NCBI GenBank assembly: GCA_017427645.1
Contig: JAFRSI010000141.1
Location: forward strand, 6,395 to 70,394
Length of the DNA stretch: 64,000 nt
Direction of reading: 5' to 3'
From: Oscillospiraceae bacterium
Lineage (GTDB): Bacteria; Bacillota; Clostridia; Oscillospirales; Oscillospiraceae
Shown here: positions 48,706-64,000 of the stretch, piece after piece
Layout: every line of letters starts with the position of its first letter
Numbering within the stretch: position 1 is the first letter of the stretch
Made by a program: the position numbers and the translations under genes
Notes under the pieces: generated by a model
Seen by the model: only the letters and a program-made list of their open reading frames with translations
Databases searched by the model: none
What the model was told of the DNA's origin: nothing

Positions 48706-48797
48706 GCGATATCCCTCCCATCTCATAATAATACATGGTAAGCATATCACAAAGCCGCCCCGTACGCAAGCAGGGCGGCTTTCCAATCTGTATTTTT

Positions 48798-50204
48798 TCA
48801 CGTGTTCTCCCGGCTGATGGGGCGGCGGTGCAGCAGGGCCAGCAGAGCCCGGCCGTTGAAGGGGATCAGCGGGTAGAGATAGCCCCGGCCCACCAGGGGG
48901 CGGGTGGAGGCGATCAGCCCCAGGATCACGGCCACGCCCAGGCCGAAGCCCCACCAGCCCAGCAGCCAGATCAGCACCAGCAGCATGATGCGGCACAGCT
49001 TGAAGGCATAGCCCATCTCGTAGCTGTGCTGGGCGTAGTTGGCCACCGCCACGAAGGCCATATACACCAGCACCTCCGGCACCAGCCAGCGGGAGCGGAC
49101 GGCGAAATCCCCCAGGATCAGGGCCCCCAGCATGCTGAAGGAGTTGCTCAGGGCGTTGGGCGTGTTCAGGGAGGCCAGCTTCAGCACGTCGATGATGAAT
49201 TCCACCAGCAGGAGCTGGATGATCAGCGGCACGGCGTACTCCCCCTCCACCAGCAGGAAGTGCAGCTCCGCCGGCAGATGGGCCGGGTCGTTGACCAGCA
49301 GATACCACATAGGTGTGATGAACAGCGTCATGGTCAGCACCGCCAGGCGGAGCAGACGCAGATAGGTACCGATGATGGGCGGAAAATAGTAGTCGTTGAC
49401 CTCCTCGGCGAAGCTCCAGATGGTGGTGGGCAGGATCATCACCGAGGAGGAGTTGTCCAGCATCAGCAGCACGTTCCCCTCCATCAGGCAGGCGGCCGCC
49501 ACGTCGGGCCGCTCCGTGTAGCGCACCTTGGGAAAGGGGTTGTACCAGCAGCGGGGCGACAGGCACTCCGCCACGCTCTCCTGGCTCATGGAGAGGGAGC
49601 GCACGTCGATGGCGGAGAGCTTGCGGCGCAGCTGGTCCAGGAGCTTTCCGTCCGCCTCGCCTTCCAGATAGCACACCGCCGCGTCCAGGCCCGTCCGTCC
49701 GCCCAGCCGGTGGGGCTCCATAGCCAGGGAGGAGCTGCGGATCCGGCGGCGCAGCAGGGCGGCGTTGCGCATCAGGCTCTCGCCGAAGCCGTCGTGACTG
49801 CCCCGCAGCACCCGGCTGGCGTCCGGCTCCTCCACGGAGCGCAGGGGAAACTGCTTGGCGTCCAGCAGGATCCCGCCGCCGAAGCCCTCGATCACCAGCA
49901 GCGTCTTGCCGGCAAAGACGCCCAGGGCGATCTGCTGCCGGTCCTCCTCCACCGTCACGTCGGCAATGCTGACGTAGCGCTCCACAAAATCCCGCAGGTC
50001 GGCCACGCCGTCCCCGTCGGGGATAGCCAGCCACACCGCGATCATCCGCTCCAGCACGGCGTCGTCGGCGTAGCCGTTGACCACCCACAGCCCGGCCCGC
50101 CGGCCGGCGATCCGCAGCGTCCGGCTGGTCAGATCGAAACAGCGGCCGCTGCCCAGCAGCTCGTCCGTTTCCCGCAGCCTTGCGCTGAAATCCTCCCGCT
50201 CCAT
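48798..50204 (-). CDS. GerA/SpoVAF-family spore germination protein
   Basis: RSVEEP..LRGSHDGF.E..N..LLRRRIR, FPKVRYTERPD, GALILGDFAV. Confidence 0.88.
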   Translation of the reverse strand: MEREDFSARLRETDELLGSGRCFDLTSRTLRIAGRRAGLWVVNGYADDAVLERMIAVWLAIPDGDGVADLRDFVERYVSIADVTVEEDRQQIALGVFAGKTLLVIEGFGGGILLDAKQFPLRSVEEPDASRVLRGSHDGFGESLMRNAALLRRRIRSSSLAMEPHRLGGRTGLDAAVCYLEGEADGKLLDQLRRKLSAIDVRSLSMSQESVAECLSPRCWYNPFPKVRYTERPDVAAACLMEGNVLLMLDNSSSVMILPTTIWSFAEEVNDYYFPPIIGTYLRLLRLAVLTMTLFITPMWYLLVNDPAHLPAELHFLLVEGEYAVPLIIQLLLVEFIIDVLKLASLNTPNALSNSFSMLGALILGDFAVRSRWLVPEVLVYMAFVAVANYAQHSYEMGYAFKLCRIMLLVLIWLLGWWGFGLGVAVILGLIASTRPLVGRGYLYPLIPFNGRALLALLHRRPISRENT

Positions 50205-50231
50205 ACGTCGCCTCCCCCCTCGTTTCCCGTA

Positions 50232-50261
50232 TAGTATGGGTGGGCGCCGCCGCCTTTATTC
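50232..50261 (-). promoter_or_regulatory. SigG-type forespore promoter
   Basis: GAATA-18-CATACTA upstream of the germination gene. Confidence 0.65.
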
Positions 50262-50312
50262 CCGCGAAAAAAGCCGGGAGAACGGTTTTTCCGTCCTCCC
50301 GGCTCCATGCCG

Positions 50313-51710
50313 TCATACCGTTTTGATGAAATAGAAAAAGATCTCGTCCTGGCCGCTGCGCCGCATGCAGGAGGACAGCATCCGGAAGGACGCCTGATTC
50401 TCCTTATAGCACTTTGCCACCACCCGGTCCAGCCCCAGGCGGTACAGGGCCCACTCCGCCGCCGCGGCAAAGGCCTCGGTGCCGTAACCGTGGCCGGCGT
50501 ATGCCGGCGCGATCCGGCAGCCCAGCTCCGCACCGCCCCGCCAGTCCAGATTGTAGAGCACCGCCTCGCCGATCAGCCGCCCCTCCAGGCGGACCGCGAA
50601 ATTGACAGCCAGCCGGTCGTCAAAATCGCGGCGGGCCACCTCCAGGAAGTAGTCCTCCGTCCATTCCCCCTGCAGATCCTCCCGGTAGTCGTAGCCCCAC
50701 CAGCGGTTGCGCTCATCATCCAGGCACAGGGCGTTGTAGGCGGCCTTGTCGTCCTCCGTCAGTTCGTCCAGCACCAGGCGCTCCGTTTTCAGTGCGGGGA
50801 CGGCGTCCAGATCGTCCAACTCGCTGCCCACGGCAAAGTGGATCTTGCTGCCCAGCTCCGCCGGCAGATACTGGAGCTTGGAGGTGCGAAGCCCCTTGTC
50901 CTGGGCGTCGTCCTCCCGGTTGATCCACCGGCACTCCGCCCCGAAACGGGCGGCAAAGGCCTGCACCAGCGTGGGATAGGCGCCGGGGCAGGAGTAGAGG
51001 GCCTTCTCGGCGTGGATCACAAGGGTGTCCCCGCATTTCTCCGCCAGGCAGAGGGCCAGCAGGCGCCCCTCGTCCTCCAGACCGCCGGCGCAGAACCAGC
51101 CCCGGTCCAGCAGACGGAACATGCCCTTGGCGGTTTCCAGCTCCCACAGAGCCATGGGGCTGGTCTTCTGGAACTCCACCTCGTACCGGCGCCAGAACGC
51201 CTCGATCCGGTCGGCATCCGCCATCGTCAGCTCCGTGAAGCGGGCCTGGGGATACAGCTTCCTGAATTTGTTGATATGGTTTCGCTGGCCGCTGTAGCGT
51301 CGCCCGGCAAAAGCCGCCATGTCGGCGGCGCGGTAGAGATAGTCTCTCCATATCCGCTCGTTGGTGATCGTCACCCGGGAATACCGGCTGCACAGCCGCG
51401 CCGTCTGCTCCGCGGGCACCACCCAGATCTCGGGGTGCATCCCCTTTTTGGTGCAGTATTCCTCAATGGCGGTCAGCGCCGCGTCCACGTCTCCGTTTTC
51501 CCCCGGCACCGGCATGTCAAAGAAGATCCCCTCCTCCACCCGGTTCAGGACCACCAGACAGCCGGCCACCTCGGCAAAAGACGACTTCAGATGGTCGTCC
51601 CACATCACCTTGGTGCCCACGGCGTACTCGCACAGGCGATAATTGCAGTTTTCATAGTACGGCTTCAAACGGCCCGCGTTCTCCGCCGTGATCGGTTCAA
51701 ATGTCAGCAT
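50313..51710 (-). CDS. DUF2156 (aminoacyltransferase-like) domain fused to a RimJ/RimL-type GNAT
   Basis: DYLY..GRRYSGQRNHINKF, HAEKA, INREDD..GLRTSKLQY; C-terminal TERLVL..GHGYGTEA..ENQAS. Confidence 0.8.
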   Translation of the reverse strand: MLTFEPITAENAGRLKPYYENCNYRLCEYAVGTKVMWDDHLKSSFAEVAGCLVVLNRVEEGIFFDMPVPGENGDVDAALTAIEEYCTKKGMHPEIWVVPAEQTARLCSRYSRVTITNERIWRDYLYRAADMAAFAGRRYSGQRNHINKFRKLYPQARFTELTMADADRIEAFWRRYEVEFQKTSPMALWELETAKGMFRLLDRGWFCAGGLEDEGRLLALCLAEKCGDTLVIHAEKALYSCPGAYPTLVQAFAARFGAECRWINREDDAQDKGLRTSKLQYLPAELGSKIHFAVGSELDDLDAVPALKTERLVLDELTEDDKAAYNALCLDDERNRWWGYDYREDLQGEWTEDYFLEVARRDFDDRLAVNFAVRLEGRLIGEAVLYNLDWRGGAELGCRIAPAYAGHGYGTEAFAAAAEWALYRLGLDRVVAKCYKENQASFRMLSSCMRRSGQDEIFFYFIKTV

Positions 51711-51780
51711 AGGCGTTTTCCCTCTGAAATGAAAAGAGAAACGCCGGCCGGGCGGCCGGCATTTCTCTCGTTGCCATATT

Positions 51781-52155
51781 TCAATTGCAGTGCTTCTGCC
51801 AGAAGGCGCGGAGCTTTTCATAGGTCTCCTCGCTCAAGTGATGCTCGATCAGGCAAGCGTCGTGCTCCGCCGTCTCGGCGCTGACGCCCAGGGCGCAGAA
51901 CAGCTCCGTCAGCATATGGTGCTTGTCCAGGGTGCTTTGGGCAATGGCAAGGCCCTTCTCCGTCAGCACCAGCTGGCCGTCGGAGAGGCGCTCCAGGCAG
52001 CCGCTGTCCACCAGCTTGCCTACCGCCACGCTGACGCTGGGCTTGGAAAAACCCAGATGGGTCGCCACGTCGATGCTGCGGCAGCTCCCCTTGGCCTCCC
52101 GGATCATCAGGATCGCCTCCAGATAGTCCTCGCTGGAACGGTGACCGTCCGCCAT
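51781..52155 (-). CDS. DtxR/MntR-family metal-dependent regulator
   Basis: SEDYLEAI, SKPSVS, LGVSAETAEHDACLIEH. Confidence 0.9.
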   Translation of the reverse strand: MADGHRSSEDYLEAILMIREAKGSCRSIDVATHLGFSKPSVSVAVGKLVDSGCLERLSDGQLVLTEKGLAIAQSTLDKHHMLTELFCALGVSAETAEHDACLIEHHLSEETYEKLRAFWQKHCN

Positions 52156-52257
52156 TGCTGTTCCCTCCTCCCGCGGCAAAGCGCCGCTTTTTCTTATCCT
52201 ACCCCATAACGGCCCGTCTTGTCAAGGACAAGGCGGCGCGGAAATGCCGGAAAACCG

Positions 52258-52297
52258 CGAGGTCCGCACAGAGTGTCTTTCCCCTGTGCGGACCTCG
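52258..52297 (-). terminator. Terminator ending the oxidoreductase operon
   Basis: cgaggtccgcacag...ctgtgcggacctcg, 14-bp stem. Confidence 0.7.
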
Positions 52298-52329
52298 TTC
52301 ATTTTACTATGGAACGGTTCTTCCCGGCG

Positions 52330-55143
52330 TCACTGCATGGTCGGATACTCCGACTTTCCGGTGATCTTTTTCTTGAGGATCTTCATGCCGCGCTTGATGG
52401 CATAGGGCTTGACCACGTCCATCATCTCCTCAGCGGTGTGCATCTCGCTGGCCTCGGGGATATCGCGGGACAGGTGGATGGCGTCGAACTGGCAGCGGGT
52501 GGTACACAGGCCGCAGCCGATGCACTGGTTCAGGTCCACCGTGGTGGCGCCGCACTTGAGGCATCGGTTGGCCTCCACCTTCACCTGCTCCTCCGTCAGC
52601 GGCAGGCGCAGGTCCTCGAAGGTGGCCGCCGCCTCGCCGGGCTTCATGCCGGGCATCTGGCGCTTGGCATTGTCGTAGCTCTCCACCAGGATGTCGTCCC
52701 GATCCAGCTCGATGAAGTTCCTCAGGTCACGGCCCAGGGTCAGGGACTGACCGGGATGCACGAAGCGGTTGATGGACACGGCGGCCTCGCGGCCGGCGGC
52801 AATGGCGTCGATGACGAACTTCTGGCCGGTGCAGACGTCGCCGCCCACGAAGATGTCCGGCTCCGCCGTCTGGAGCGTGACCGGGTCGGCCTTGACGGTG
52901 CCGTTGCGGTTGAACTCCACCCGGGTGCCCTCCAGCAGCTTGCCCAGATCGGGCTTCTGGCCGATGCAGTAGAGCACGGTGGTGCAGGCGGCCTCGGCGG
53001 TATCGCCGTCGTCGAACTTCGGGTCGAAGCGGCCCTCGGCATTCTTGACGGACAGGCACTTGCGGAAGCGGATCCCGGTGCACCTGCCGTCCGCCGTCAG
53101 GATCTCCGTCTGGCCCCAGCCGGCGTGGATGGCGATGCCGTCCGCCTCCACCTCGGCCCGGTCGTCGGGCCCCATGGGCATCTCGTCGTAGCTCTCCAGG
53201 CAGTAGAGGTCCACCTTGGCGGCCCCTGCCCGGACGGCGGTCCGGGCGATGTCCGCGGCGATATTTCCGCCGCCGATCACCACCACGCTGCCGCTGAGCT
53301 TCTTCTCCGGGTGCTGGGTGATCTCACGGGAGAAGGTGATGCCGGGGATCACGCCCTGGGCGTCGTCGCCGGGGATCCCCAGCCTGCCGCCGCTCTGCAG
53401 GCCGGCAGCCAGGAAAAACGCCTTGTAGCCCTGGGCGCGCAGCTGATCCAGGGTCACGTCCCTGCCCACGTCGACGCCGCAGCGGAACTCCACGCCCATC
53501 CGGCGGATGATGTCGATCTCGCCCTCGATGACCTTCTTCTCCAGGCGGAAGTTGGGGATGCCGTTCATCATCATGCCGCCGGGGCGCTGCTCCCGGTCAA
53601 ACACCGTGACGGGGTAGCCCTCCTGCCGCAGATAGTAGGCGGCGCTCAGGCCGGCGGGGCCGGCGCCGATGACGGCGATCGGGAAATCGTCCCACTGCTT
53701 GCCGTCCATGTTCTCGCAGACGGGAACGTAGTCGGCGGGGTGCTGCAGCTCCCACTGGGCCAGGAACTTCTTGATCTCGTCGATTGCCACGGGCGCGTCG
53801 ATGGTGCCGCGGGTGCAGCGGTCCTCGCAGCGGCGGTTGCAGATGGCGCCGCAGACGGCCGGGAAGGGGTTGTCCTGCCGGATCAGGCGGATCGCCTCGT
53901 CGTAGCGGCCCTCGGCGGCCATGCGGATATAGCCCTGTACCGCCAGATGGGCGGGACAGGCGGTTTTGCACGGAGACGTGCCCGTATCGTAGCAGTTGAT
54001 CTTGTTGTGATCCCGGTAGTCCGGGTCCCAGCGATCCTCGCCCCACACGTTGTCGTCCGGCAGATCGTGCATGGGGTACATCACCTTGGAGCCGTCCGCC
54101 CGGCAGAGCTTCTGGCCCAGCTTGGCGGCGCCGGAGGGACAGACCTCCACGCATTTGCCGCAGGCCACGCACTTGGTGGCGTCCACGTGGGCGCGGTAGG
54201 CGGAGCGGGACATGTTGGGCGTGTTGAACAGCTGGGAGGTCCGCAGGCCGTAGCAGCTGCCGGGAGAGCAGTTGCAGATTCCCACGATGCGGTCCGGGCC
54301 GTCCAGGTTGGTGATCTGGTGGACGTAGCCCTTGCGCTCGGCCCGCTCAATGATCTCCATGGCCTCCTCGCGGGTGATGTAGTGGGCGTCCTTGCCGGAC
54401 TCCACCAGAAACTCGGCGATATCGCCCACGCCGATGCACATGTAGCCCTCGATATCGCCCACACCCTCGCCGCGGATGCGCTGGGCCTTGCGGCAGGCGC
54501 AGACCATGGTGCAGAACTTGTCGTTCTTCTGCAGCCAGTGGCTCAGATGCTCCACGCTGACCGACTGGGAGGCTCCGTCGATGGCCTGCTCCACGGGGAT
54601 CACGTGCATGCCGATGCCGGCGCCCCCGGGAGGCACCAGCTTGGCAGCCAGCTCCAGGGGCTCCTGGGGTGCCAGGTTGAACATGGTGGCCACCTCGGGA
54701 TGCTCGTCGGCCAGGGTGGGATGCTCCACCATGTATTCGCCGGAGCCCACCACCCACTTGGGGATCCAGTACTGGATGTGCTGATCCGGGTTGTCCCGGT
54801 TCTGCTCCAGGATACCGATCCACAGCAGGTGGTCGATGACCTTCTGCGCCTCCTCCACGCTCATCTGATTGCGCTCCGCCAGCTCCGGGGTGGTGAGCCC
54901 GAAACGGCGCTTCCTGAAGCTGAGCATGAAGCGGACTTCATCCTTGGTCAGCAGCTGGTCCAGGATCCAGAAATCCATGTGGTTTTCCTTCATGCCGCCG
55001 GGCAGCTTGCGGGGAATGTTGTCCGTGATCATGCGGGCCAGCTTCATCACCAGCTTTTTCTTTTCCGGATCGCTGCAGCGGTGATCCGTCACGGGATAGT
55101 CCCGCTGGTTCACGTGTATTCTGGGATTGACTTCCTTTACCAT
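52330..55143 (-). CDS. Multi-Fe-S, FAD/NAD(P)-binding oxidoreductase (GltD-like core with ferredoxin domains)
   Basis: CxCR..C..CNC..C; CVACGKCVEVCP; CKTACP..CGAICNRRCEDRC; GAGPAG; GGGNIAAD; C-terminal CLKC..CIGCGLCTTRC. Confidence 0.88.
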   Translation of the reverse strand: MVKEVNPRIHVNQRDYPVTDHRCSDPEKKKLVMKLARMITDNIPRKLPGGMKENHMDFWILDQLLTKDEVRFMLSFRKRRFGLTTPELAERNQMSVEEAQKVIDHLLWIGILEQNRDNPDQHIQYWIPKWVVGSGEYMVEHPTLADEHPEVATMFNLAPQEPLELAAKLVPPGGAGIGMHVIPVEQAIDGASQSVSVEHLSHWLQKNDKFCTMVCACRKAQRIRGEGVGDIEGYMCIGVGDIAEFLVESGKDAHYITREEAMEIIERAERKGYVHQITNLDGPDRIVGICNCSPGSCYGLRTSQLFNTPNMSRSAYRAHVDATKCVACGKCVEVCPSGAAKLGQKLCRADGSKVMYPMHDLPDDNVWGEDRWDPDYRDHNKINCYDTGTSPCKTACPAHLAVQGYIRMAAEGRYDEAIRLIRQDNPFPAVCGAICNRRCEDRCTRGTIDAPVAIDEIKKFLAQWELQHPADYVPVCENMDGKQWDDFPIAVIGAGPAGLSAAYYLRQEGYPVTVFDREQRPGGMMMNGIPNFRLEKKVIEGEIDIIRRMGVEFRCGVDVGRDVTLDQLRAQGYKAFFLAAGLQSGGRLGIPGDDAQGVIPGITFSREITQHPEKKLSGSVVVIGGGNIAADIARTAVRAGAAKVDLYCLESYDEMPMGPDDRAEVEADGIAIHAGWGQTEILTADGRCTGIRFRKCLSVKNAEGRFDPKFDDGDTAEAACTTVLYCIGQKPDLGKLLEGTRVEFNRNGTVKADPVTLQTAEPDIFVGGDVCTGQKFVIDAIAAGREAAVSINRFVHPGQSLTLGRDLRNFIELDRDDILVESYDNAKRQMPGMKPGEAAATFEDLRLPLTEEQVKVEANRCLKCGATTVDLNQCIGCGLCTTRCQFDAIHLSRDIPEASEMHTAEEMMDVVKPYAIKRGMKILKKKITGKSEYPTMQ

Positions 55144-55178
55144 TTTCTATCTCCCTCGTACGAATTCTGTGGGGATGC

Positions 55179-56363
55179 TCACATGATGGGGATCTTGATC
55201 CTGACGTCGCTGGTGGGATAGGCGGCGCAGGCGTGGACGTAGCCGAAGTCGCGGTCCGCGCCCCGGCGGCCGTCGTTCTCCGGGCAGATATAGACGCTGC
55301 CGGAGAGGACCTTGGTGCGGCAGAAGCCGCATTCGCCGCTGCGGCAGCCGGTTTCGATGCGGATGCCGGCCCGCTCCAGGGCCACCACCAGGCTCTCCGT
55401 GGCCTTGGCGGGGATCACGTCCTCGCGGAGACCGCGGACAACGGTGAGCTGATAGGTCCGATCCCGGCACTCCATGGGATAGCCGGGGAAGGTGGTGATA
55501 TCCTTGGCCTGGCCGAACACCTCGAAGCGCACGCGGCGCTTGGGAATATCCAGCTTGGCCAGCTCCCCGTGGAGGAAGCGGTACATCACCTGGGGGCCGC
55601 AGATAAAGTAGGTGGTGTCCGGCGCGGAATACTTCCGGATCAGCTCCGCTGTCAGGAAGCCCCTTTCGCCCTGCCAGTCCGGCTCGTCGCCGGAGAGGAC
55701 GTGGACCACGCGGACGTGCTCGCCCTCCAGGGCGGCCAGCTCCTCCTTCAGCGTGATGTCGTCGGAGGACACGGAGCCGTAGAGGATGGTCAGATCCATG
55801 TCCAGCGTGCCGTGGGCTACCTCCCGGGCCATGGAGGCGAAGGGCGTGATGCCCACGCCGCCGGCCAGGGCCACCACGTGCTTTGCGTCGCGCAGGGGCT
55901 CGTAGTAGAACTGGCCGCAGCCGATCAAGCCGCGGAAGGTGTCGCCCACCTTCACGTTGTCGTTGATGTGGTCGCAGATAAAGCCGTCGCCCTTGGAGCG
56001 GCGGACCGTGATCTCCACAAAGCCCTTCTCCTGCCGGGCCTGCCAGGGCGCCGAGGAGATGGAGTAGGGTCGGGAGATCAGGCTCTGGCCAATGGGGAAG
56101 TCCAGCACCATGAACTGACCGGCGTAGAAGGGGGGCAGCTTTCCGCCGCCGACCTTTTCAAAGCGGACGGTCTTGGCGGTCCTGGAGGCGTCGCGGATCT
56201 CCGTCACCACCAGGTCCAGCTTGCCGGGATGCCACTCTCTGGCTACGTCGGCGATGGGGTCCTCCCGGACCGGCGCGGGAGAAGCGGCTGCAAACGCGTG
56301 GAGACGCGCCTTGGTGACGCGGGAGGCGCCTCCTACGTCCTTCAAAAAGCCGTTTACTTTCAT
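55179..56363 (-). CDS. FNR-type FAD/NAD-binding reductase with C-terminal 2Fe-2S ferredoxin
   Basis: RPYSISS, AGGVGITPF, ICGP, FEVF, CRSGECGFC..C; 4-bp overlap with upstream gene. Confidence 0.88.
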   Translation of the reverse strand: MKVNGFLKDVGGASRVTKARLHAFAAASPAPVREDPIADVAREWHPGKLDLVVTEIRDASRTAKTVRFEKVGGGKLPPFYAGQFMVLDFPIGQSLISRPYSISSAPWQARQEKGFVEITVRRSKGDGFICDHINDNVKVGDTFRGLIGCGQFYYEPLRDAKHVVALAGGVGITPFASMAREVAHGTLDMDLTILYGSVSSDDITLKEELAALEGEHVRVVHVLSGDEPDWQGERGFLTAELIRKYSAPDTTYFICGPQVMYRFLHGELAKLDIPKRRVRFEVFGQAKDITTFPGYPMECRDRTYQLTVVRGLREDVIPAKATESLVVALERAGIRIETGCRSGECGFCRTKVLSGSVYICPENDGRRGADRDFGYVHACAAYPTSDVRIKIPIM

Positions 56364-57889
56364 TTCGCCGCCTCCTTTGCCATGGTATCCAGCACATTTT
56401 TCGCCGCCTTGCGGCCGTTGACCACCGCCGGGCCCATACCGTCGCCGCTGATCTGGTGGGCGCCGGAGAACTCCAGATGGCCGATGAACTTCTCCTCCTC
56501 TTCCGTCTGCAGACGGGCAACGATGTGGTCCTCCATGGTGTGGGCATAGCCGTAGATGCAGCCGTTCCACATGCCGGTATAGCGGGCCACGGTCATGGGC
56601 GTCTCGATCACGATCTCCAGTATGTGATCCAGCAGATTCACGCCGAAGTAGGCGCTCATATCGTCGATGAGCTGCTTGGCCACCTGATGCTTCACGCGGT
56701 CATACTCGTCGGCGGTAACGGTCTTCCAGCCGTCCACGCGCGGCAGAACGGTGATGGAGAAGGAGCAGGTCCCCGCGGGGGTGGCGTCGGGATTGCCGTA
56801 GTTGTGGCAGATACAGGTGAGATAGCTGTACGGACCCAGGCCCTTCAGCTCATCGTAAATCCTGTCGGTATCCATCGTGGTGCCGTGGAAGATGCTGTAA
56901 TCCTTGATGTTCAGCTCCTCGGCGCTCTTGTCCAGGATCAGGATGACAGAGAATGCCGTCAGACTGATGCGGCGGCCGTTGACCATCTTGATGGCCCCGG
57001 CGGGCACCGCCTCAGCCGGCTCGATCATGGAGGTGTAGACCTTGTTGGGGTAGGCCGAGCAGATCACGTAGTCGGCGTAGATCTCGTCGCCCCGGGCGGT
57101 GCGGACGCCGTAAGCCTTGCCGTCCTTCACCAGGATCTTGTCCACGTGCTGCCGGTACTCGATCTGTACGCCCATCTCCTCGGCCTTTTCCGCCATCTTC
57201 AGGCTCATCTCATGGCTGAACTTCCGGGGGATATAGGAGCCGTTGCCGATATACTCGCCCATCAGCACGGCGTAGATGGTGAAGGGCAGATCGTTGAAGC
57301 CGCTGCCCACGTAGATCCAGTAGGGGGCCAGCAGATCCAGGGCCTTCTGCGGCAGGTCGAAGGTGTCCAGCACCTCTTTGGTGCTGTAACCGGCGGTCTT
57401 GACAAAGGCCGGGTGCTTGAGCAGCATCTGGGGCTTGCTCAGGTGGTTGACGGACAGATAGTTGACGCTGTCATACACGGTGGCGCACAGGTCCATCAGA
57501 CGCTTGACCTTCTCGTACGTGCCGGGCACGGCGGCGTCGATCTCGCGGGAGAAAGTCTCCATGCCCGGGTGCAGCGTCACCTCCAGGCCGGGGAGACTGG
57601 CATGGTACGCCTCCGGTACCCGGAGCCAGTCGATGTCGATGCCCAGCTGGTCGAAAAATACGCCCACCTTCTGCCGGTTGTCCTTGGCGCCGATATACAT
57701 CATTTCGTGGAGGGCCGCTTCGATCTCGATGCCGCCGCGCACGAAAGAGGTGGCCACGCCGCCGGGCAGATTGTGACGCTCCAGCACCAGCACGTCCTTG
57801 CCCTTGTCCGCCAGCTGCAGCGCCGCCGAAAGGCCCGCCAGCGCGCCGCCCACCACGATGACGTCATAGTGGTCTTTGTAAAATTTCAT
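56360..57889 (-). CDS. CrtI/phytoene desaturase-retinol saturase family FAD oxidoreductase
   Basis: VGGALAGL..VLERHNLPGG..SFVRGG..EAALH; ETPMTVARYT..NGCIYG; GDGM..VNGRKAA. Confidence 0.85.
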   Translation of the reverse strand: MKFYKDHYDVIVVGGALAGLSAALQLADKGKDVLVLERHNLPGGVATSFVRGGIEIEAALHEMMYIGAKDNRQKVGVFFDQLGIDIDWLRVPEAYHASLPGLEVTLHPGMETFSREIDAAVPGTYEKVKRLMDLCATVYDSVNYLSVNHLSKPQMLLKHPAFVKTAGYSTKEVLDTFDLPQKALDLLAPYWIYVGSGFNDLPFTIYAVLMGEYIGNGSYIPRKFSHEMSLKMAEKAEEMGVQIEYRQHVDKILVKDGKAYGVRTARGDEIYADYVICSAYPNKVYTSMIEPAEAVPAGAIKMVNGRRISLTAFSVILILDKSAEELNIKDYSIFHGTTMDTDRIYDELKGLGPYSYLTCICHNYGNPDATPAGTCSFSITVLPRVDGWKTVTADEYDRVKHQVAKQLIDDMSAYFGVNLLDHILEIVIETPMTVARYTGMWNGCIYGYAHTMEDHIVARLQTEEEEKFIGHLEFSGAHQISGDGMGPAVVNGRKAAKNVLDTMAKEAAK

Positions 57890-57911
57890 AGGCAATTATC
57901 CTTTCCGAAAA

Positions 57912-57936
57912 ACGGGGGCGGTTGTCCCGCCCCCGT
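57912..57936 (-). terminator. Hairpin with U-tract between the isomerase and the CrtI-like gene
   Basis: Minus strand acgggggcgg-gacaa-ccgcccccg-ttttt. Confidence 0.6.
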
Positions 57937-57947
57937 CTCTGCAAGTC

Positions 57948-59336
57948 TTAGAAGAAGCGATCCACCAGCTCGCGGGAGTACTCGGCCGTCTCGTCCATGT
58001 CGCCGAAGGACATGATCTCGCCGGCATAATAGGTGTCGTACTTGCCCTGCATGGCCTCCACCTTGTCATACCAGCCGGCGGCATAGTCGTCGGAGAAGAC
58101 GTGGGGGAAGTAATACACGGACCACTCGTTGATGACCTCTCTGGCGGGGTTCTTCATGATCTTCAGATCGTCCTGCACCATCTGGCGGCACTCCTCGTAG
58201 GGGATCTCCCTGGAGTTCTTGTGCTTGCGCAGGGCGTAGGTGGTGATGACCTGGTCGATCTGATCCTTCCAGCGGCGATAGTAGACCATCAGGTGGCCCA
58301 GCTTCTCGGGCACCATGTTGTCAAACACGTAGTAGGAGATCTCGGGGTGATCCTCGGGTCTGGTTAGCACGGCCTGGACGTCATAGCGCTCGTAGTCGAT
58401 CTTGGAGAACAGCGCCTTTTCGTCCTCGCGGGCGTCGAAGTAGTCCACCATGCCCTTCTGGCCGTCGGCCCGGGTGCCGGGGATATACAGCGGCGCGGTG
58501 ACGATGATCTTGTCATACTCCTCCACCTGGCCGTTGACGGTGACGTAGACCTTGCCGTCCCGGCGCTCCACCTTCTCGATGGTGCTGCCCAGGCGGGCGG
58601 GATTCTTCAGATGGGCGTTGAGCTGCTCCCAGATGTACTGGGTGCCCTCCTTCCAGGTCCAGAGATTGACCTTCACGAAGTTCATGCAGGTCTGATAGTC
58701 CAGATACTTCACCACGTAGCCGGCGGGGATCTCGTCGAAGTAGCCGTAGCCAAAAGAGGTAAAGGGCCCGATCCAGATCTTCTGCACCAGGGGCACGCCG
58801 TTCATCTCGCAGAACTGCTTGAAGGGCATGGCCAGATCCTTCAGGTTGGGGTTGACGCCCTCCACCTTCTCGCGGCCGGGGGTGACGGCATAGCCCTCGT
58901 AGCGGCCTTCGGCAACGCCGCGGTGGCCGTTGATGTCGTAGCCCTTGTACTTGGTCTCCAGCAGCTCGCCGAACTTCTTGAGCTGGCTCTTCATCTTCAG
59001 CATCCAGGGATTCTTGATGATGTTGCCGATGGTGCGGGCAAAGGGCTCAATGACCTCGCCCTTGGCGTTCTTGTAATTGCGGTTCAGCTTGGGACCGTCG
59101 TGGGTGATGCCGCAGAAATCCTCCACGTCCTTGACGGCGTAGTAGCTGGGCACGCCCATGATGGCGCCCATCTCATAGCGCCGCCCGTTGTAATGGGGGG
59201 ACCAGCACTTGCCGCCCACGCGATCCTGGCGCTCCAGGATGGTGTAGTTCTCATAGCCCTTCTGCTCCAGATACATACCGGCGGAAAGACCGGCGGGGCC
59301 GCCGCCCACGATGCAGATGCGAATGTTCTTGTCCAT
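57948..59336 (-). CDS. Polyunsaturated fatty acid isomerase (PAI-type linoleate 10,12-isomerase) homologue
   Basis: Blocks shared with C. acnes PAI as recalled: GPAGL.AGMYLEQ, YTILER, VGGKC.SP, GRRYEMGAIMGVPSY, DGPKL.R, PFT.FGYG.FD, LGH.MVYY.RW, EECRQMV.DD, YYFPHV, GWY.KVE.MQG, YAGEIMSFG; RBS ggagg. Confidence 0.88.
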   Translation of the reverse strand: MDKNIRICIVGGGPAGLSAGMYLEQKGYENYTILERQDRVGGKCWSPHYNGRRYEMGAIMGVPSYYAVKDVEDFCGITHDGPKLNRNYKNAKGEVIEPFARTIGNIIKNPWMLKMKSQLKKFGELLETKYKGYDINGHRGVAEGRYEGYAVTPGREKVEGVNPNLKDLAMPFKQFCEMNGVPLVQKIWIGPFTSFGYGYFDEIPAGYVVKYLDYQTCMNFVKVNLWTWKEGTQYIWEQLNAHLKNPARLGSTIEKVERRDGKVYVTVNGQVEEYDKIIVTAPLYIPGTRADGQKGMVDYFDAREDEKALFSKIDYERYDVQAVLTRPEDHPEISYYVFDNMVPEKLGHLMVYYRRWKDQIDQVITTYALRKHKNSREIPYEECRQMVQDDLKIMKNPAREVINEWSVYYFPHVFSDDYAAGWYDKVEAMQGKYDTYYAGEIMSFGDMDETAEYSRELVDRFF

Positions 59337-59393
59337 GTTCAGCCTCCATATCATTATTCCGTATTCGGTATTGAAACCGCAATCGTGTAGTAT

Positions 59394-59422
59394 ATTATAT
59401 CGCCGTTTTCGTTTAAATTCAA
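59394..59422 (-). promoter_or_regulatory. Promoter of the isomerase operon
   Basis: TTGAAT-17-TATAAT. Confidence 0.7.
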
Positions 59423-59471
59423 CAGACAATTATCGATTATAAACATTTTCATGCAATTTGAAAGAGAAATC

Positions 59472-59500
59472 TTTATTTTATATGACGAATATGGTATACT
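59472..59500 (+). promoter_or_regulatory. Divergent promoter of the ligase-ACP-thioesterase operon
   Basis: TTTATT-17-TATACT with extended TG. Confidence 0.6.
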
Positions 59501-59522
59501 GCCCGCAGGGAGGTGCGTTTGT

Positions 59523-60863
59523 ATGCGATTTGACGGCTTCCGGCATCTGCTGGCCCACTGGGCGGAGCGTCAGCCGGACGCACCGGCGCTGCGCTTCGGC
59601 GCCCAAAGCTGCTCTTTCGGGGAGCTTCTGCACCGGGTCGAGCAGCGCTCGGCTCAGCTGCGGGCAGAGGGGAATACCTGCATGGGGATCCTCTCCGACG
59701 GCAGCCTGGACTGCGTGATCGAGATCTTTGCGGCCAACGCCGCCGGACTGCAGGCGGTGCTGCTGGACGAGCAGCTCCCCGAGGACGTGCTGCGGGGGCT
59801 GATCCGGTATGCCGACATCGACCGACTGTGGGGCGACGAGGACCTGGTGCAGGAATTGACGCCCGCCCTGACCGGCGGCACGGCCGACGGCGCGGGAAAG
59901 CTCCTGTTCTTCACCTCCGGCACCACGGAGCAGTCCAAGGCCGTGGTCCTGACGGATCACAGCCTGTGCCAGAGCGCCTGGAACGGCTCCCAGATGCTGC
60001 CCCTCTCCCGGGAGGACACGCTGCTTTGCCTGCTGCCTCTGGGCCACGTATTCGGCTTCGTGTGCGGCCTTCTGTGGGGTCTCTCCAACGGGGCCTGCGT
60101 CGCCCTGGGCCGCGGCGTGCGCCACTATTTTGACGACTGCGCCTTCTACTCCCCCACGGCGGTTTCCGTGGTGCCCCTGCTGCTGGAGCACCTTTTGCGC
60201 GCCGATGCCCTGGGGCCCACTCTGCGGACGGTCCTGGTAGGCGCCGGCGACTGCCCCGCCCCCCTGCTGGCCGCCGCTGCGGCCCGGGGCCTGCGGATCA
60301 GCTTCGGCTACGGCCTCACGGAGACCAGCTCCGGTGTGGCCATCAGCACGGGCGGCGATCCCTTTGCCATGGATATCTGCCCCGACGACACCGTCACCCT
60401 GGCCCCGGACGGCGAGATCCTGATTGAAGCGCCCACCTGCATGATGCAGGGCTACTACAAGCGCCCGGACGCCACCGCTGCCGTGCTGCAGGACGGCGTT
60501 CTGCACACGGGGGATCTGGGCCGGTTCGACCAGGAGGGGCGGCTCCATATCCTGGGCCGCAAGAAGGACGTCCTGGTGCTGCCGGACGGCACGAAGCTCT
60601 ATCTCCCCGAATATGAAAGCGAAATCGCGGAGGCCCTGGGGATCCGCGACCTGGCCGTCACCCTCCGCAGCGGACGGCCCATCCTCCTGCTGCACGGCGA
60701 GATCAGCCCCGCCGAGGCAGTGCAAAAGCTGCGCCCCCTCATGGCGCGGCGCCCCCGCGGACAGCAGCTGACGGACGTCCTGGTGACGAATCAGCCTCTG
60801 CCCCGTACGGCTACCGGAAAGATCAAACGCTGGGAACTCCAGCAGAAAGTGAGTGTGCTATGA
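59523..60863 (+). CDS. AMP-binding (ANL) long-chain acyl ligase
   Basis: FTSGTT..SK, GYGLTET, HTGDLG, GRKKD, LPRTATGKIKR; RBS ggaggtg. Confidence 0.9.
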   Translation: MRFDGFRHLLAHWAERQPDAPALRFGAQSCSFGELLHRVEQRSAQLRAEGNTCMGILSDGSLDCVIEIFAANAAGLQAVLLDEQLPEDVLRGLIRYADIDRLWGDEDLVQELTPALTGGTADGAGKLLFFTSGTTEQSKAVVLTDHSLCQSAWNGSQMLPLSREDTLLCLLPLGHVFGFVCGLLWGLSNGACVALGRGVRHYFDDCAFYSPTAVSVVPLLLEHLLRADALGPTLRTVLVGAGDCPAPLLAAAAARGLRISFGYGLTETSSGVAISTGGDPFAMDICPDDTVTLAPDGEILIEAPTCMMQGYYKRPDATAAVLQDGVLHTGDLGRFDQEGRLHILGRKKDVLVLPDGTKLYLPEYESEIAEALGIRDLAVTLRSGRPILLLHGEISPAEAVQKLRPLMARRPRGQQLTDVLVTNQPLPRTATGKIKRWELQQKVSVL

Positions 60864-61108
60864 AAAGAGAAGAGATCCTGGAAAAGACCCGCAAGATTAT
60901 CTACGACTGCTTCCCCGAGTTGGCGGACGCGGAGCTGCGGGAGGACACGGTGATCAATACGGATACCGGTATCGACTCCATGGGCTTCGTGCTCATCATC
61001 TGCAAGCTGGAGGCCCTGTTCAACGTGCGGATCCCGGAGCGGCAGTGGAAGAAGCTCTCCACCCTGGGCGACGTGGTGGACGCCATCTCCAACCGTCTGT
61101 CCAAATGA
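60860..61108 (+). CDS. Acyl carrier protein
   Basis: 82 aa; GIDSM phosphopantetheine site; ATGA overlap with the ligase. Confidence 0.9.
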   Translation: MKREEILEKTRKIIYDCFPELADAELREDTVINTDTGIDSMGFVLIICKLEALFNVRIPERQWKKLSTLGDVVDAISNRLSK

Positions 61109-61824
61109 GTATTTATCAGAAGGAGCTGCGCCTGCGCAGCTCGGACGTGGATCTCCACCGGCGATTGCGCCTGTCCACCCTGTTCGCCCTGCTCCAGGAG
61201 GCCGCCATCGCCCACACGGAGCAGTTGGGGATGGGCCGGGCCATGACCCTGGACCGCGGCGCCCTGTGGATCGTAACGCTGCAGTCGGCGCAGATCCGGC
61301 GCATGCCGGAATATGACGAGGAGATCGTGCTCCGCTCCTGGCCGGGACAGACCATGCACGTTCTGTTTCCCCGCTACTGCGCCGTTGATACGGCCTGCGG
61401 CGAGCCGCTGATCCGCGCCAGCGCCCTGTGGACGCTGATCGACGGCGACACCCGGAAGCTGGTTTTCCCGGAGCGGCTGGGGGTGGAGATCCAGGGCGTC
61501 TCCCGCCCGGAGGACGAGATCCCCCTGCCCTCTGCCCCGCGGCCCATCCCGACCACGCAGCACCGGGAGTTCACCGTGCCCTACAGCTACGTGGATCTCA
61601 ACGGCCACATGAACAACACCCGTTACTTCGACCTGGCGGAGGACTGCATCAGCGCCGCAGCGGAGGGACGGCCTCTGCGCGCCGTCAGCACGGAATTCAA
61701 ACAGGAGGCCCGCCTGGGCGAGACCCTCTCCCTGGCGTGGGGCCGGGACGGCGAGCGCTGGTATCTGGCCGGCGCCGCAGAGAAGAACGTCTTCCGCATG
61801 AGTCTCACCTACGGCGAGGGCTGA
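61105..61824 (+). CDS. Acyl-ACP thioesterase (FatA/FatB-like double hot-dog)
   Basis: SDVD..LQEAA.AH, DLNGHMNNTRY; ATGA overlap with ACP. Confidence 0.9.
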   Translation: MSIYQKELRLRSSDVDLHRRLRLSTLFALLQEAAIAHTEQLGMGRAMTLDRGALWIVTLQSAQIRRMPEYDEEIVLRSWPGQTMHVLFPRYCAVDTACGEPLIRASALWTLIDGDTRKLVFPERLGVEIQGVSRPEDEIPLPSAPRPIPTTQHREFTVPYSYVDLNGHMNNTRYFDLAEDCISAAAEGRPLRAVSTEFKQEARLGETLSLAWGRDGERWYLAGAAEKNVFRMSLTYGEG

Positions 61825-61881
61825 GAGGCGAATGATCCGCTTTCCGCATGGAAAGCAGCTCTCAGCGACGCAGATATGCAA

Positions 61882-61912
61882 GCCCCGCAGCCGATACGGC
61901 TGCGGGGCGTTT
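61882..61912. terminator. Bidirectional terminator
   Basis: gccccgcagccg-ata-cggctgcggggc followed by gtttt. Confidence 0.75.
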
Positions 61913-61930
61913 TGCAGACGTTTTGTTGTT

Positions 61931-64000
61931 TTATGTCAACCGATCCGTCTCGTCCGTTCCTCTATATTCCAGACACAGCATGGTCAGATCGTCGAACTGC
62001 TCAGCGTCGCCGACAAAAATGTCAACGGCCTGCCGAACTGCTTCCAGAATTCCCTCCGGACTTCTGTCGGAGCCGGCATCCAGCGCGGCCAGCATACGAT
62101 CCGTACCGAAGCGCGTGCCGTTCTCGTCCTCAGCCTCCGCGACTCCGTCCGTATAGACGAACAGCTTATCTCCCGGGGTCAGTTGGATCTGATACTCCGG
62201 ATAGTGTATACCCTCCATTGCGCCGATCACGAGACCGTGCTTATCCTTATACAGCTCGCTTTTTCCCTTCCTGATCCACACCGGATATTCATGTCCCGCG
62301 TTGGCCGCAGTGAGCAGGCCGGTTTTCAGATCCAGGATGCCTGCCCAGACCGTGACAAACATGGTGTCCTTGTTGTTGCCGCAGATTGCTGTATTGACCG
62401 TTTCCAACAGCTTAGCGGGGCTCTTGCTCAGCATGGCGTAGTTGTTCAGCATGATCTTACAGGCCATCATAAACAGGGCGGCGGGCACGCCTTTTCCGGA
62501 TACGTCGGCAATCAGGAGACACAGATGGTCGTCATCGATCAGGAAAAAGTCGTAAAAGTCGCCGCCCACCTCCTTGGCCGCGTCCATGGAGGCGAAAATG
62601 TCCACTTCCTTCTTGTCGGGGAAGGGCGGGAAGACACTGGGCAGCATATGGGACTGAATGCTGGCGGCCAGACTCAGCTCCGTGTTGATGCGCTCGTTCT
62701 CTGCGGTAATGCTCTCGATGTCGCTGATGTATTCCTTCATACGCAGAGTCAGCCCCCGGAACGAATCCGCCAGGACTTGGGTCTCGTCCCCGGTCTCCAG
62801 CTTCAACTGGAAGTCCAGATTACCGCCCTCCATGGTCCCTACCTCCTCCGTCAGCAGGCGGATAGGCTCGACGATCTGATGGGAGATCCTGACAGACACG
62901 GCAATGGCGATGAGCACGGCGACCCCCAGCAGGCCCAGCAGCAGATAAACCGCGTAACGGATATGATCTGTGGCGTTCTGCACCGTCTGATCGGTCACCT
63001 GGTCCACGTTGGCAAGCAGCCGGTTCGTCGGCTCCTCCACTGCCTCCTGGGGCAGGAAGACCACCATCGACCAGCCGACGGTTTTCATGGGGGCGTACGA
63101 TACATAGCAGGAGACTCCATCCACCGACGCCCGCAACAGGCCCGCGCCGCCTGACGTGGCATCCCTGGCGATCCTGGCAAGCTCCCAATCCTCGGACAGC
63201 CGGAGATCCGGCGCGTCCACCACGGCGGCAAAGGAGCCCTCATCGAATGTGGAGAACAGGACCTGTCCGTTCTCGTTGATGATACAGGCCTTGCCGCTGT
63301 TGCCCAGATTCACGCTCTGGACCAGATTCTCCATCTCGTCCAGATACATGCCTGCGCCGGCCACTGCCGCAAGCTCATCTCCGCGGAAGACCGGCACGCC
63401 ACACATGATAGCCAGGCGCGGCGTATGCGCGTCCTTGGTGACCGGTGTGAAAAACGGCTCGCCGGTGGCAGCGGCGCCCTGATACCACGGGCGCTCCTTT
63501 GCCTCCAGAGGCATGAGATTCCCGACCTCGTCGAATTTCTTGGCTGAGATATAGTCCGCCTGCACCATGAAGCCGGACTCTGTGGCCACGTAGATGGAGG
63601 CCATGTTGTCCTGGCTGGCATTCACGGCCATCAGCACACCCTGCACGTTGCCGATCAGGGCAAGCTCTTCCTGAATAGCCGGATCTGCCGGATCCGTACT
63701 TGCGGAGTAGAGGACCTGGGTGGTCAGCACGCCGTCGTTCTTCGGGTCGGGCAGGGGCGCAGGGTTGGGGGAATACCGCTCCGGGTTGTTGTAGATCTCC
63801 CCGGCAACGGACCCCACGATGACAACGCCCTGCCGGAAATTGGAGAAGATCCCGTCTGCGATTTCCGCCGACTTTCTGGCAAGCTCCACCAGCCGGCTCT
63901 TCGACTGGTTGGACAGGTACGTGGTGGATTCTTCGCCGATGGTCTCGCTCAGGTTCCGGTTGGACGAGGACAGCGTACCCGAAATGCTCCTTACGGTCAG
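61931..64000 (-). CDS. Cache-HAMP-PP2C (SpoIIE-family) sensor phosphatase, 5' end beyond the window
   Basis: ERPWY Cache motif, TM, HAMP, EVGGDFYD, ADVSGKG, NAGH, YTDGV, DDLT; frame stays open to base 64000. Confidence 0.9.
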   Translation of the reverse strand: MTVRSISGTLSSSNRNLSETIGEESTTYLSNQSKSRLVELARKSAEIADGIFSNFRQGVVIVGSVAGEIYNNPERYSPNPAPLPDPKNDGVLTTQVLYSASTDPADPAIQEELALIGNVQGVLMAVNASQDNMASIYVATESGFMVQADYISAKKFDEVGNLMPLEAKERPWYQGAAATGEPFFTPVTKDAHTPRLAIMCGVPVFRGDELAAVAGAGMYLDEMENLVQSVNLGNSGKACIINENGQVLFSTFDEGSFAAVVDAPDLRLSEDWELARIARDATSGGAGLLRASVDGVSCYVSYAPMKTVGWSMVVFLPQEAVEEPTNRLLANVDQVTDQTVQNATDHIRYAVYLLLGLLGVAVLIAIAVSVRISHQIVEPIRLLTEEVGTMEGGNLDFQLKLETGDETQVLADSFRGLTLRMKEYISDIESITAENERINTELSLAASIQSHMLPSVFPPFPDKKEVDIFASMDAAKEVGGDFYDFFLIDDDHLCLLIADVSGKGVPAALFMMACKIMLNNYAMLSKSPAKLLETVNTAICGNNKDTMFVTVWAGILDLKTGLLTAANAGHEYPVWIRKGKSELYKDKHGLVIGAMEGIHYPEYQIQLTPGDKLFVYTDGVAEAEDENGTRFGTDRMLAALDAGSDRSPEGILEAVRQAVDIFVGDAEQFDDLTMLCLEYRGTDETDRLT

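Follow-up and report, generated by a model that had tools for sequence, protein, structure and literature searches.

A conserved gene island around a fatty-acid isomerase in ruminant-gut Clostridia as a candidate route for isomerization and hydrogenation of polyunsaturated fatty acids

The locus and its control region

The window analyzed here is a 64,000-nt stretch of contig JAFRSI010000141.1 (positions 6,395 to 70,394) from the metagenome-assembled genome (MAG) Oscillospiraceae bacterium GCA_017427645.1, which is 2.03 Mb in size and 79.5% complete; all coordinates below are window positions. It carries a divergent seven-gene locus centered on a relative of PAI, the fatty-acid isomerase of Cutibacterium acnes. 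On the minus strand, a PAI-like FAD isomerase of 462 aa (57948-59336, with its start ATG at 59336 after a GGAGG) is followed by a 509-aa FAD enzyme of the CrtI/CRTISO/RetSat superfamily (56360-57889), a candidate double-bond saturase, by a 394-aa FNR-type FAD/NAD(P)H/2Fe-2S reductase (55179-56363) and by a 937-aa IsrA-like Fe-S flavoprotein (52330-55143), a candidate second reductase acting on conjugated dienes. The plus strand holds an ANL-superfamily acyl ligase of 446 aa (59523-60863), the presumed loader of the stand-alone acyl carrier protein (ACP) encoded next to it (82 aa, 60860-61108, with a DSM serine motif), and a FatA/B-type acyl-ACP thioesterase (TE) of 239 aa (61105-61824). Pfam and NCBIfam scans recovered all seven open reading frames with the domains and layout given for them in the original prediction. 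For none of the seven proteins was an NCBIfam equivalog above its cut-off, and Atlas searches returned generic family names.

The two operons diverge from a 186-bp control region (59337-59522) with back-to-back promoter-like sites and a G+C content of 35%, compared with approximately 59-69% in the flanking 1-kb windows, which agrees with the shared AT-rich promoter region that had been proposed. Toward PAI, the minus strand carries TTGAAT-17-TATAAT (59422-59394), a 10/12 match to the consensus. On the other side, an extended -10-like TGgTATACT lies upstream of the ligase gene, which likely starts at ATG 59523, preceded by GGGAGG, rather than at the upstream ATG 59451. Both -10 boxes are conserved across 10 aligned relatives while the remainder of the spacer diverges, and the spacer ranges from 93 to 301 bp in length (69 loci). 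ATGA start/stop overlaps join the CrtI-like to the FNR-like gene, the ligase to the ACP gene and the ACP to the TE gene, so the translational coupling claimed for the ligase-ACP-TE operon is found at both of its junctions.

The leftward genes had also been described as a four-gene run from one promoter. A promoter-like site does precede PAI, but a strong GC-rich hairpin followed by U5, terminator- or attenuator-like in appearance, separates PAI from the CrtI-like gene (57908-57940, minus strand). Its minimum free energy (MFE) is -29.1 kcal/mol (z -4.74), and none of 200 shuffled sequences folds equally well. A structured spacer of variable sequence (MFE of -15 kcal/mol or lower, typically 55-66 nt) is present between the two genes in 67 of 76 related loci. 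PAI is thus possibly expressed above the downstream genes, and the hairpin may be a partial terminator or processing site that sets this ratio to the reductase genes. The leftward operon ends in a terminator-like hairpin (52259-52296, minus strand) with 13-bp arms at 52259 and 52284, then GCGGUUUUCC on the minus strand; the 91-nt stretch that contains it (52240-52330) folds at -50.1 kcal/mol. A second terminator-like hairpin, with 11-bp GC-rich arms and then CGUUUUG, lies 3' of the TE gene (61883-61907, plus strand).

Conservation and natural variants of the island

A scan for PAI relatives with one genome per species yielded 387 loci. Neighborhoods were counted in the best 80 (all at least 82% identical), using for each gene only the loci with enough flanking sequence and bearing in mind that related genomes are non-independent observations. 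PAI is accompanied by the CrtI-like gene in 69 of 69 loci, by the FNR-like gene in 63 of 63, by the ligase and the ACP genes in 72 of 73 each, and by the TE gene in 68 of 69. The same neighbors recur in the genomes of other species, and their adjacency in the window is therefore not due to chance. The conserved core has the order TE-ACP-ligase, back to back with PAI-CrtI-FNR. Synteny across gut and rumen MAGs, which was the first check suggested for the locus, is thus found for six genes and only partly for the IsrA-like gene, which lies within 10 kb of PAI in 12 of the 34 fully flanked loci and directly after the FNR-like gene, as in the window, in about 10 of the 80.

As many as 78 of the best 80 loci come from MAGs, most with record titles that name ruminant gut or rumen, and the taxa in these titles are Oscillospiraceae/Ruminococcaceae, Lachnospiraceae, Anaerovoracaceae/Mogibacterium and Coriobacteriaceae. 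DNA of the locus was also found in bovine gut metagenomes from several studies. Nearly all carriers are MAGs, whose bins may contain foreign contigs; many of the loci lie on contigs of 50-500 kb. The island is patchy: within the window's genus, PAI was found in 3 of 25 genomes, and an even sample of the whole family contains it in 10 of 300 genomes (approximately 3% of the family's species). A CrtI orthologue occurs in 10 of the same 300 genomes, of which 8, besides the window's own genome, also have PAI, with the two genes adjacent. The PAI tree (built with FastTree, as was the IsrA-like tree below) mostly tracks host families with a few nested exceptions, among them two Coriobacteriales rows within an Oscillospiraceae clade. 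Identity to the window's PAI (83-96%) does not track identity to its CrtI-like and FNR-like proteins, which falls into classes of approximately 55% and 80% (L009-L088): loci with a 90-93% identical PAI have CrtI/FNR at approximately 55%, and loci with PAI at approximately 84% have CrtI/FNR at 80-85%. This mismatch suggests that the reductase module has been exchanged between islands.

The gene set is kept through different gene orders, and this is the strongest computational evidence for a joint function. In a Solobacterium MAG (L107), all seven genes form one co-directional run, PAI-CrtI-FNR-Lig-ACP-TE-IsrA-like. The cultured Clostridium oceanicum JCM 1407 (L099) has a CrtI-FNR-PAI run with no carrier genes nearby and an IsrA-like gene on a different contig. 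In another cultured strain, Stecheria intestinalis Oil+RF-744-GAM-WT-6 (L105, L136), TE-ACP-Lig faces two tandem PAI paralogues, and the CrtI-FNR pair and two IsrA-like genes lie on contigs other than that of the PAI locus. A Cutibacterium genome (L092) has PAI alone, and neither the locus nor the rest of the genome holds a CrtI-like or a full-length IsrA-like gene. This would fit the behavior of C. acnes, which accumulates conjugated linoleic acid (CLA) of the trans-10,cis-12 form (t10,c12-CLA) and is not known to reduce it further. The reverse situation, a stand-alone CrtI-FNR pair without PAI or carrier genes, is seen in two Oscillospiraceae genomes (L122/G323 and L123/G160). In L123 the pair is preceded by the gene of a GntR-family, FadR_C-domain regulator and adjoins that of a GDPD glycerophosphodiesterase, a link to lipids that is independent of PAI and speaks for the pathway proposed below. 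Together, these genomes provide a genotype series of PAI alone, PAI with CrtI-FNR, all genes in one operon, and all genes dispersed in a cultured strain.

A few loci deviate in other ways. In L035 (ligase at 1440-2555, PAI at 10001), approximately 7.4 kb is inserted between ligase and PAI; L055 has no Lig-ACP-TE within 10 kb of PAI; and two Lachnospiraceae loci (L093 and L094) have a 72%-identical PAI without any partner. The distant PAI-like proteins P0126, P0127 and P0128 are encoded on contigs of 2-4.6 kb, which give no usable neighborhood.

Isomerase, reductases and carrier module

The isomerase is the best-anchored member of the set, and there is strong sequence support that it is a true relative of C. 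acnes PAI, as originally assigned. It matches the solved PAI structure (PDB 2b9w) over its full length with an E-value of 2.5e-135 (phmmer; two stretches covering query residues 2-463, the query having one extra N-terminal residue) and is approximately 55% identical to the C. acnes variant P0124. Seven residues, numbered as in C. acnes, never vary among the 81 island copies: G13, G15 and G18 (GxGxxG), E37, R88, F168 and F193. We take R88, F168 and F193 to form the substrate entrance, with a carboxylate gate and a channel wall; the roles of these three residues were reportedly worked out by Liavonchanka et al. in 2006. As the carboxylate-binding Arg is kept, free acids are probably the substrates of the island enzyme. 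The wider PAI family comprises 166 clusters at E <= 1e-30 (50% clustering).

The CrtI-like protein has Pfam matches to Amino_oxidase, DAO and NAD_binding_8, and its structure model (pLDDT 88.5) is closest to the CrtI-type carotenoid desaturase 4rep (TM 0.82-0.85, E 2.7e-28), with amine oxidases at a TM of approximately 0.6. Its scores stay under the curated cut-offs for both TIGR02734 crtI_fam (92.4 bits, cut-off 238.1) and TIGR02730 carot_isom (112.3 bits, cut-off 586.9), by which measure it is a distant branch of the superfamily outside the curated families. The FNR-like protein combines FAD_binding_6 and NAD_binding_1 with a C-terminal plant-type 2Fe-2S domain (Fer2). Its RxYS (R98, Y100, S104) and GGxGxTP (G168-P174) motifs and the cysteines C340, C345, C348 and C379 are invariant in 29 sequences, and it has a conserved 45-residue N-terminal arm.

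The two proteins are predicted to form a heterodimer. The ipSAE, which is a model confidence and no measurement, was 0.94 in three runs, compared with 0.51 for the best of three controls, and the mark applied is attained by 58 of 80 solved complexes and, among 110 mismatched pairs, by 2. The runs agree in at least 90% of contacts, and the partner's pLDDT is 89 or higher. On the side of the FNR-like protein, the predicted interface consists for the most part of the N-terminal arm, together with loops around the 2Fe-2S ligands, which contact, among others, CrtI residues 40-55 beside the FAD-binding motif. We know of no solved CrtI-FNR complex that a predictor could have memorized, nor of any FNR/2Fe-2S pairing for CrtI enzymes. 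A dedicated NAD(P)H reductase docked in this way points to a reductive, or at least a reduced-flavin, CrtI enzyme, and the pair is a concrete predicted complex to purify.

The wording "reduced-flavin" matters, given that the CrtI-like protein could instead be a CRTISO-like isomerase that needs reduced FAD, with the FNR-like protein keeping the flavin reduced and no net hydrogenation taking place (for example, with trans,trans-CLA as the product). CRTISO itself requires reduced FAD without net redox change, the best NCBIfam match is the carotenoid isomerase model TIGR02730 (112 bits), and PAI shows that the fold is able to isomerize fatty acids. However, that score is far under the cut-off of 587, and a stoichiometric NAD(P)H reductase, translationally coupled and predicted to dock tightly, in 63 of 63 loci exceeds the usual priming role, and we consider this explanation improbable. 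Two further roles were rejected. An NAD+-linked desaturase is thermodynamically unfavorable, given that C=C reduction by NAD(P)H is strongly exergonic and NAD+-linked desaturation is not. A reductase serving an oxygenase or O2-dependent desaturase would need such a gene, and the conserved core has none; the island's hosts belong to families of strict anaerobes.

The large flavoprotein (REINTERPRETED) had been placed in the electron chain to the CrtI-like enzyme. Its architecture is instead that of IsrA, the putative isoprene reductase of Acetobacterium wieringae ISORED-2, a 901-aa member of the GltD/NfnB-like 'clade 9' (PMC10134865). Besides PF14691, PF07992 and four canonical 4Fe-4S clusters, IsrA is described as having an unannotated N-terminal domain of approximately 270 aa and two CxC motifs that make up a Cys6 site (PMC10134865). 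In the window's protein, PF14691 (384-468) and PF07992 (488-784) are accompanied by two Fer4 domains and by CxxCxxCxxxC motifs at 325 and 874, residues 1-310 have no Pfam match, and a Cys6 site is formed by C211, C215, C217 / C290, C292, C297, with the CxC motifs 75 residues apart compared with 74 in IsrA. Its description also names hypA (73%) and hypB (56%) as neighbors, a homologue in A. woodii adjoins an oleate hydratase gene, and hydrogenation of other conjugated hydrocarbons was suggested by Kronen et al. as a function of IsrA homologues (PMC10134865).

The genes of the nickel chaperones HypA and HypB are also the only recurrent extra neighbors found among the 80 loci. They lie, beside IsrA-like genes, within or at the margin of 17 and 12 of the 80 related islands, respectively (L012, L026, L038, L040, L048-L052, L056, L065, L069, L073, L076, L080, L081), and L049 and L076 have the order HypA-HypB..TE-ACP-Lig<>PAI-CrtI-FNR-IsrA. 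The 64-kb window has neither gene, and the only HypA of its genome is found elsewhere (C24:2774-5710), where it immediately follows an IsrA-like paralogue of 58% identity on contig C24. In the IsrA-like tree, the proteins linked to islands group across several families in one supported clade, separate from the paralogues outside islands; most of these loci were found via PAI, which biases the sample. In the unbiased 300-genome sample, the IsrA-like family occurs in 47 genomes, including 9 of the 10 PAI-positive ones, and orthologues of at least 77% identity are found only in four PAI-positive genomes. On this sequence evidence, the large flavoprotein is more likely a second, self-contained reductase of conjugated C=C bonds than a link in the electron chain. 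A bifurcating, NfnAB-like pair of FNR and large flavoprotein was rejected, as the FNR-like protein is of the PDR/PaaE type with a plant-type 2Fe-2S domain and is predicted to dock on the CrtI-like protein, and most of the 10-kb neighborhoods lack the large flavoprotein.

With two candidate reductases, their roles could be exchanged: the IsrA-like protein, together with HypA/HypB, would then be the true conjugated-linoleate reductase, and CrtI-FNR would reduce the isolated double bond that remains or the cis-15 bond in products of linolenate, or act as a geometric isomerase. The match to the Cys6 architecture, HypA/HypB within islands and the island-specific clade, with its closest orthologues confined to PAI-positive genomes, all speak for this, and IsrA is the only family with a proteomic link to the reduction of an unactivated conjugated diene (PMC10134865). 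However, the IsrA-like gene is near PAI in only about a third of the fully flanked loci whereas CrtI-FNR is never missing, C. oceanicum keeps CrtI-FNR-PAI together with its IsrA-like gene elsewhere, and the IsrA family is common in PAI-negative genomes (47 of 300 genomes, compared with 10 of 300 for PAI). We therefore regard an exchange of roles as unlikely, although it deserves to be taken seriously.

The carrier module is as tightly linked to PAI as CrtI-FNR, and the linkage holds in Stecheria, where CrtI-FNR is elsewhere. The ligase is a short ANL enzyme that matches only the generic PF00501 (E 1.5e-37), with MenE as its nearest solved structure (3.3e-28), and it reaches no NCBIfam equivalog, MenE and long-chain ligases being far under their cut-offs. 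The ACP (PF00550, 27.5 bits, cut-off 20.8) has a GIDSMGF motif and scores under the cut-offs of the housekeeping AcpP models of NCBIfam. The TE matches PF01643 (72.1 bits, cut-off 23.7) and PF20791 (34.2 bits, cut-off 21), and its nearest solved structure is 2own (2.6e-15). Plausible purposes of the module would be to sequester a free acid that is toxic or to route the product.

Ligase, ACP and TE in one coupled operon also make up a load-and-release set, as would be expected if the island were biosynthetic and an acyl chain on a dedicated ACP were turned by PAI and the CrtI-like enzyme into an uncommon trans or conjugated lipid, serving the cell's membrane or as a metabolite, and then released. 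The Stecheria locus, where Lig-ACP-TE stands beside two paralogues of PAI, indeed lacks a reductase. Against this, the conserved core has no condensing, transferase or lipid-assembly gene, PAI keeps the Arg for a free carboxylate, and the island is a patchy accessory element of approximately 3% of species, mainly in ruminant guts rich in polyunsaturated fatty acids (PUFAs), all of which makes a biosynthetic role very improbable indeed. It is also a long shot that the substrates are other plant polyenes, such as carotenoids, apocarotenoid acids, phytol-derived acids, terpenes or conjugated fatty acids with other chain lengths. This would suit a CrtI fold nearest to a carotenoid desaturase and a ligase closer to MenE than to fatty-acid ligases, and IsrA relatives have been proposed to act on terpenes (PMC10134865), but the protein at the hub is 55% identical to a fatty-acid isomerase and keeps the gate residues invariant, the TE is of the fatty acyl-ACP type and a FadR-type regulator accompanies the stand-alone CrtI-FNR pair.

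The surroundings of the island were also inspected. An MntR/DtxR-type metal regulator gene (51781-52179, minus strand) with a promoter-like site at 52225-52196 lies directly downstream of the island terminator and outside the conserved island. It is followed by a gene for a 502-aa fusion of an MprF-type LPG_synthase_C and a GNAT acetyltransferase domain (50313-51821, minus strand) and by one for an 800-aa protein with a C-terminal HAD-IIA phosphatase domain (47914-50316, minus strand), whose start overlaps the fusion gene by 4 bases; this pair may modify lipids or the envelope and is not conserved beside PAI elsewhere. On the other side, a sensor phosphatase gene (dCache_1, HAMP, SpoIIE/PP2C; 61931-64000, minus strand) converges on the TE gene with a common terminator region, and sensor-phosphatase-like genes near PAI in L094 and L124 have only 33-40% identity. 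The MntR-like, MprF-C/GNAT and SpoIIE-type genes were rejected as parts of the island, given that PAI in other genomes is not accompanied by them. In RNA-labeled bovine and sheep gut libraries (X15, X16, X18 and X19), Logan contigs match both operons (51500-62500). The exact matches among them extend over the two operons at low depth, and contigs of relatives have their highest summed depth over PAI and the IsrA-like gene. These are assembled contigs from which neither level nor strand can be read, depth cannot rank genes, DNA carry-over is possible and the conserved PAI draws contigs of relatives, and we therefore rejected them as expression evidence and regard them as a hint at most.

Proposed pathway and comparison with known systems

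Ruminal biohydrogenation sets the trans and saturated fat in milk and meat, and the genes of its reductive steps are essentially undefined. Based on gene content, linkage and structure prediction, we find it on balance probable that the locus is an accessory element with which uncultured Clostridia of the ruminant gut isomerize and then hydrogenate dietary PUFAs. In the first step, for which homology is good support, PAI would act on free linoleate or linolenate and convert its cis-9,cis-12 diene to a conjugated one, in all likelihood trans-10,cis-12. We infer all later steps from linkage, cofactor logic and one structure prediction. The CrtI-FNR heterodimer would pass electrons from NAD(P)H over the FAD and 2Fe-2S of the FNR-like protein to the FAD of the CrtI-like protein and saturate one of the conjugated double bonds. 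The IsrA-like protein, NAD(P)H-dependent and possibly nickel-requiring, may provide an alternative or further reduction, an optional step given that its gene is only sometimes linked. The carrier module, whose part is the least certain, would load the fatty acid or an intermediate and release the product. The cell would benefit by PUFA detoxification, by an electron sink or by both.

Several points weigh against this pathway. We know of no characterized PAI relative other than the C. acnes enzyme, so that the regiochemistry is extrapolated over approximately 55% identity. The CrtI superfamily includes desaturases, isomerases and saturases that are indistinguishable by sequence, and the island protein scores below the cut-offs of the curated CrtI and CRTISO families. 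The presence of two candidate reductases makes the assignment of steps ambiguous. The ligase is nearest to MenE and to no fatty-acid ligase, the carboxylate Arg of PAI points to free-acid substrates and leaves the ACP module without a defined place, and a thioester leaves a remote double bond unactivated. IsrA itself is only a putative reductase (PMC10134865; bioRxiv 2026.02.25.708027).

The possible link to milk fat is of practical relevance, as t10,c12-CLA, which is made by the trans-10 branch, depresses milk-fat synthesis with large milk-fat losses, and until a Cutibacterium isolate was obtained no rumen strain forming it was available, as of 2024 (PMC11770317). In its furthest-reaching form, the proposal would be that the island is the missing rumen trans-10 pathway, with two reductases without precedent for unactivated double bonds, a CrtI-FNR saturase and a nickel IsrA-type enzyme, by which linoleate is converted, on or next to a dedicated acyl carrier, first to t10,c12-CLA, then to t10-18:1 and perhaps further to stearate. 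Its carriers (uncultured Oscillospiraceae, Lachnospiraceae, Anaerovoracaceae and Erysipelotrichaceae) would in that case be chiefly responsible for the trans-10 shift that underlies milk-fat depression. We hold this to be doubtful as a whole, though far from negligible. The island nevertheless offers concrete candidate genes for the trans-10 route, widespread in ruminant MAGs, and a possible physiological substrate class for the IsrA family. If the pathway is confirmed, its genes might find use in the management of milk-fat depression, as markers or as targets, and as new biocatalysts to reduce unactivated dienes.

Biohydrogenation by isomerization and subsequent reduction is already classical, and it is the gene set that is so far undescribed. 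The claim that the cluster is new to Clostridia must be narrowed, as BLAST had already revealed PAI homologues in rumen MAGs, seven in number, that belong to Lachnospiraceae, Oscillospiraceae and unclassified bacteria (PMC10019597). It stands for the island itself: in full-text searches of the literature we found no description of the island, of the CrtI-FNR pairing or of a link between IsrA and PAI.

The individual parts have clear relatives. The IsrA-like protein, likened to IsrA (VUZ27132.1) by its published description, agrees with it in domain order, Cys6 site and 4Fe-4S sites, but its gene follows the PAI-CrtI-FNR run rather than being part of an isr operon. The FNR-like protein shares the three-domain order and cofactor motifs of the phthalate-dioxygenase-reductase (PDR) type (PaaE, Hcr, BenC), from which it differs by scores under every equivalog cut-off, by its N-terminal arm and by a conserved core without an oxygenase partner. 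The CrtI-like protein has the fold and FAD-binding N-terminus of 4REP at approximately 18% identity, and RetSat, which saturates one double bond of a conjugated polyene, sets a precedent. It differs by a dedicated FNR/2Fe-2S partner that it is predicted to bind, a pairing not known to us from CrtI enzymes, and by its occurrence in strict anaerobes beside a fatty-acid isomerase.

Among whole pathways, the CLA-HY/DH/DC/ER system of Lactiplantibacillus plantarum is also encoded by several genes and leads from linoleate over conjugated to monoenoic acids (PMC13365329). It uses different families, and the seven proteins of the window include no hydratase (MCRA), SDR, acetoacetate-decarboxylase-like or enone-reductase family; in the chemistry proposed here, a direct FAD isomerase acts without hydroxy or oxo intermediates. 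The cis-9,trans-11 CLA reductase of Butyrivibrio fibrisolvens (Hughes 1982; Fukuda 2007) has the role proposed here, an NADH-linked conversion of conjugated linoleate to a trans-monoene in a rumen Firmicute, and its sequence family is absent from KEGG, COG and Pfam (PMC4478896). It differs in belonging to the trans-11 pathway, and it is not known to have a PAI partner. The closest counterpart is C. acnes PAI, with which the island isomerase shares full-length homology, the FAD motif and R88, F168 and F193. The island enzyme has a 22-aa insert at residues 140-161 that is absent from C. acnes and a further insert of approximately 10 aa, and it is embedded in an island of six to seven genes, whereas the Cutibacterium PAI is solitary in a genome that has neither reductase.

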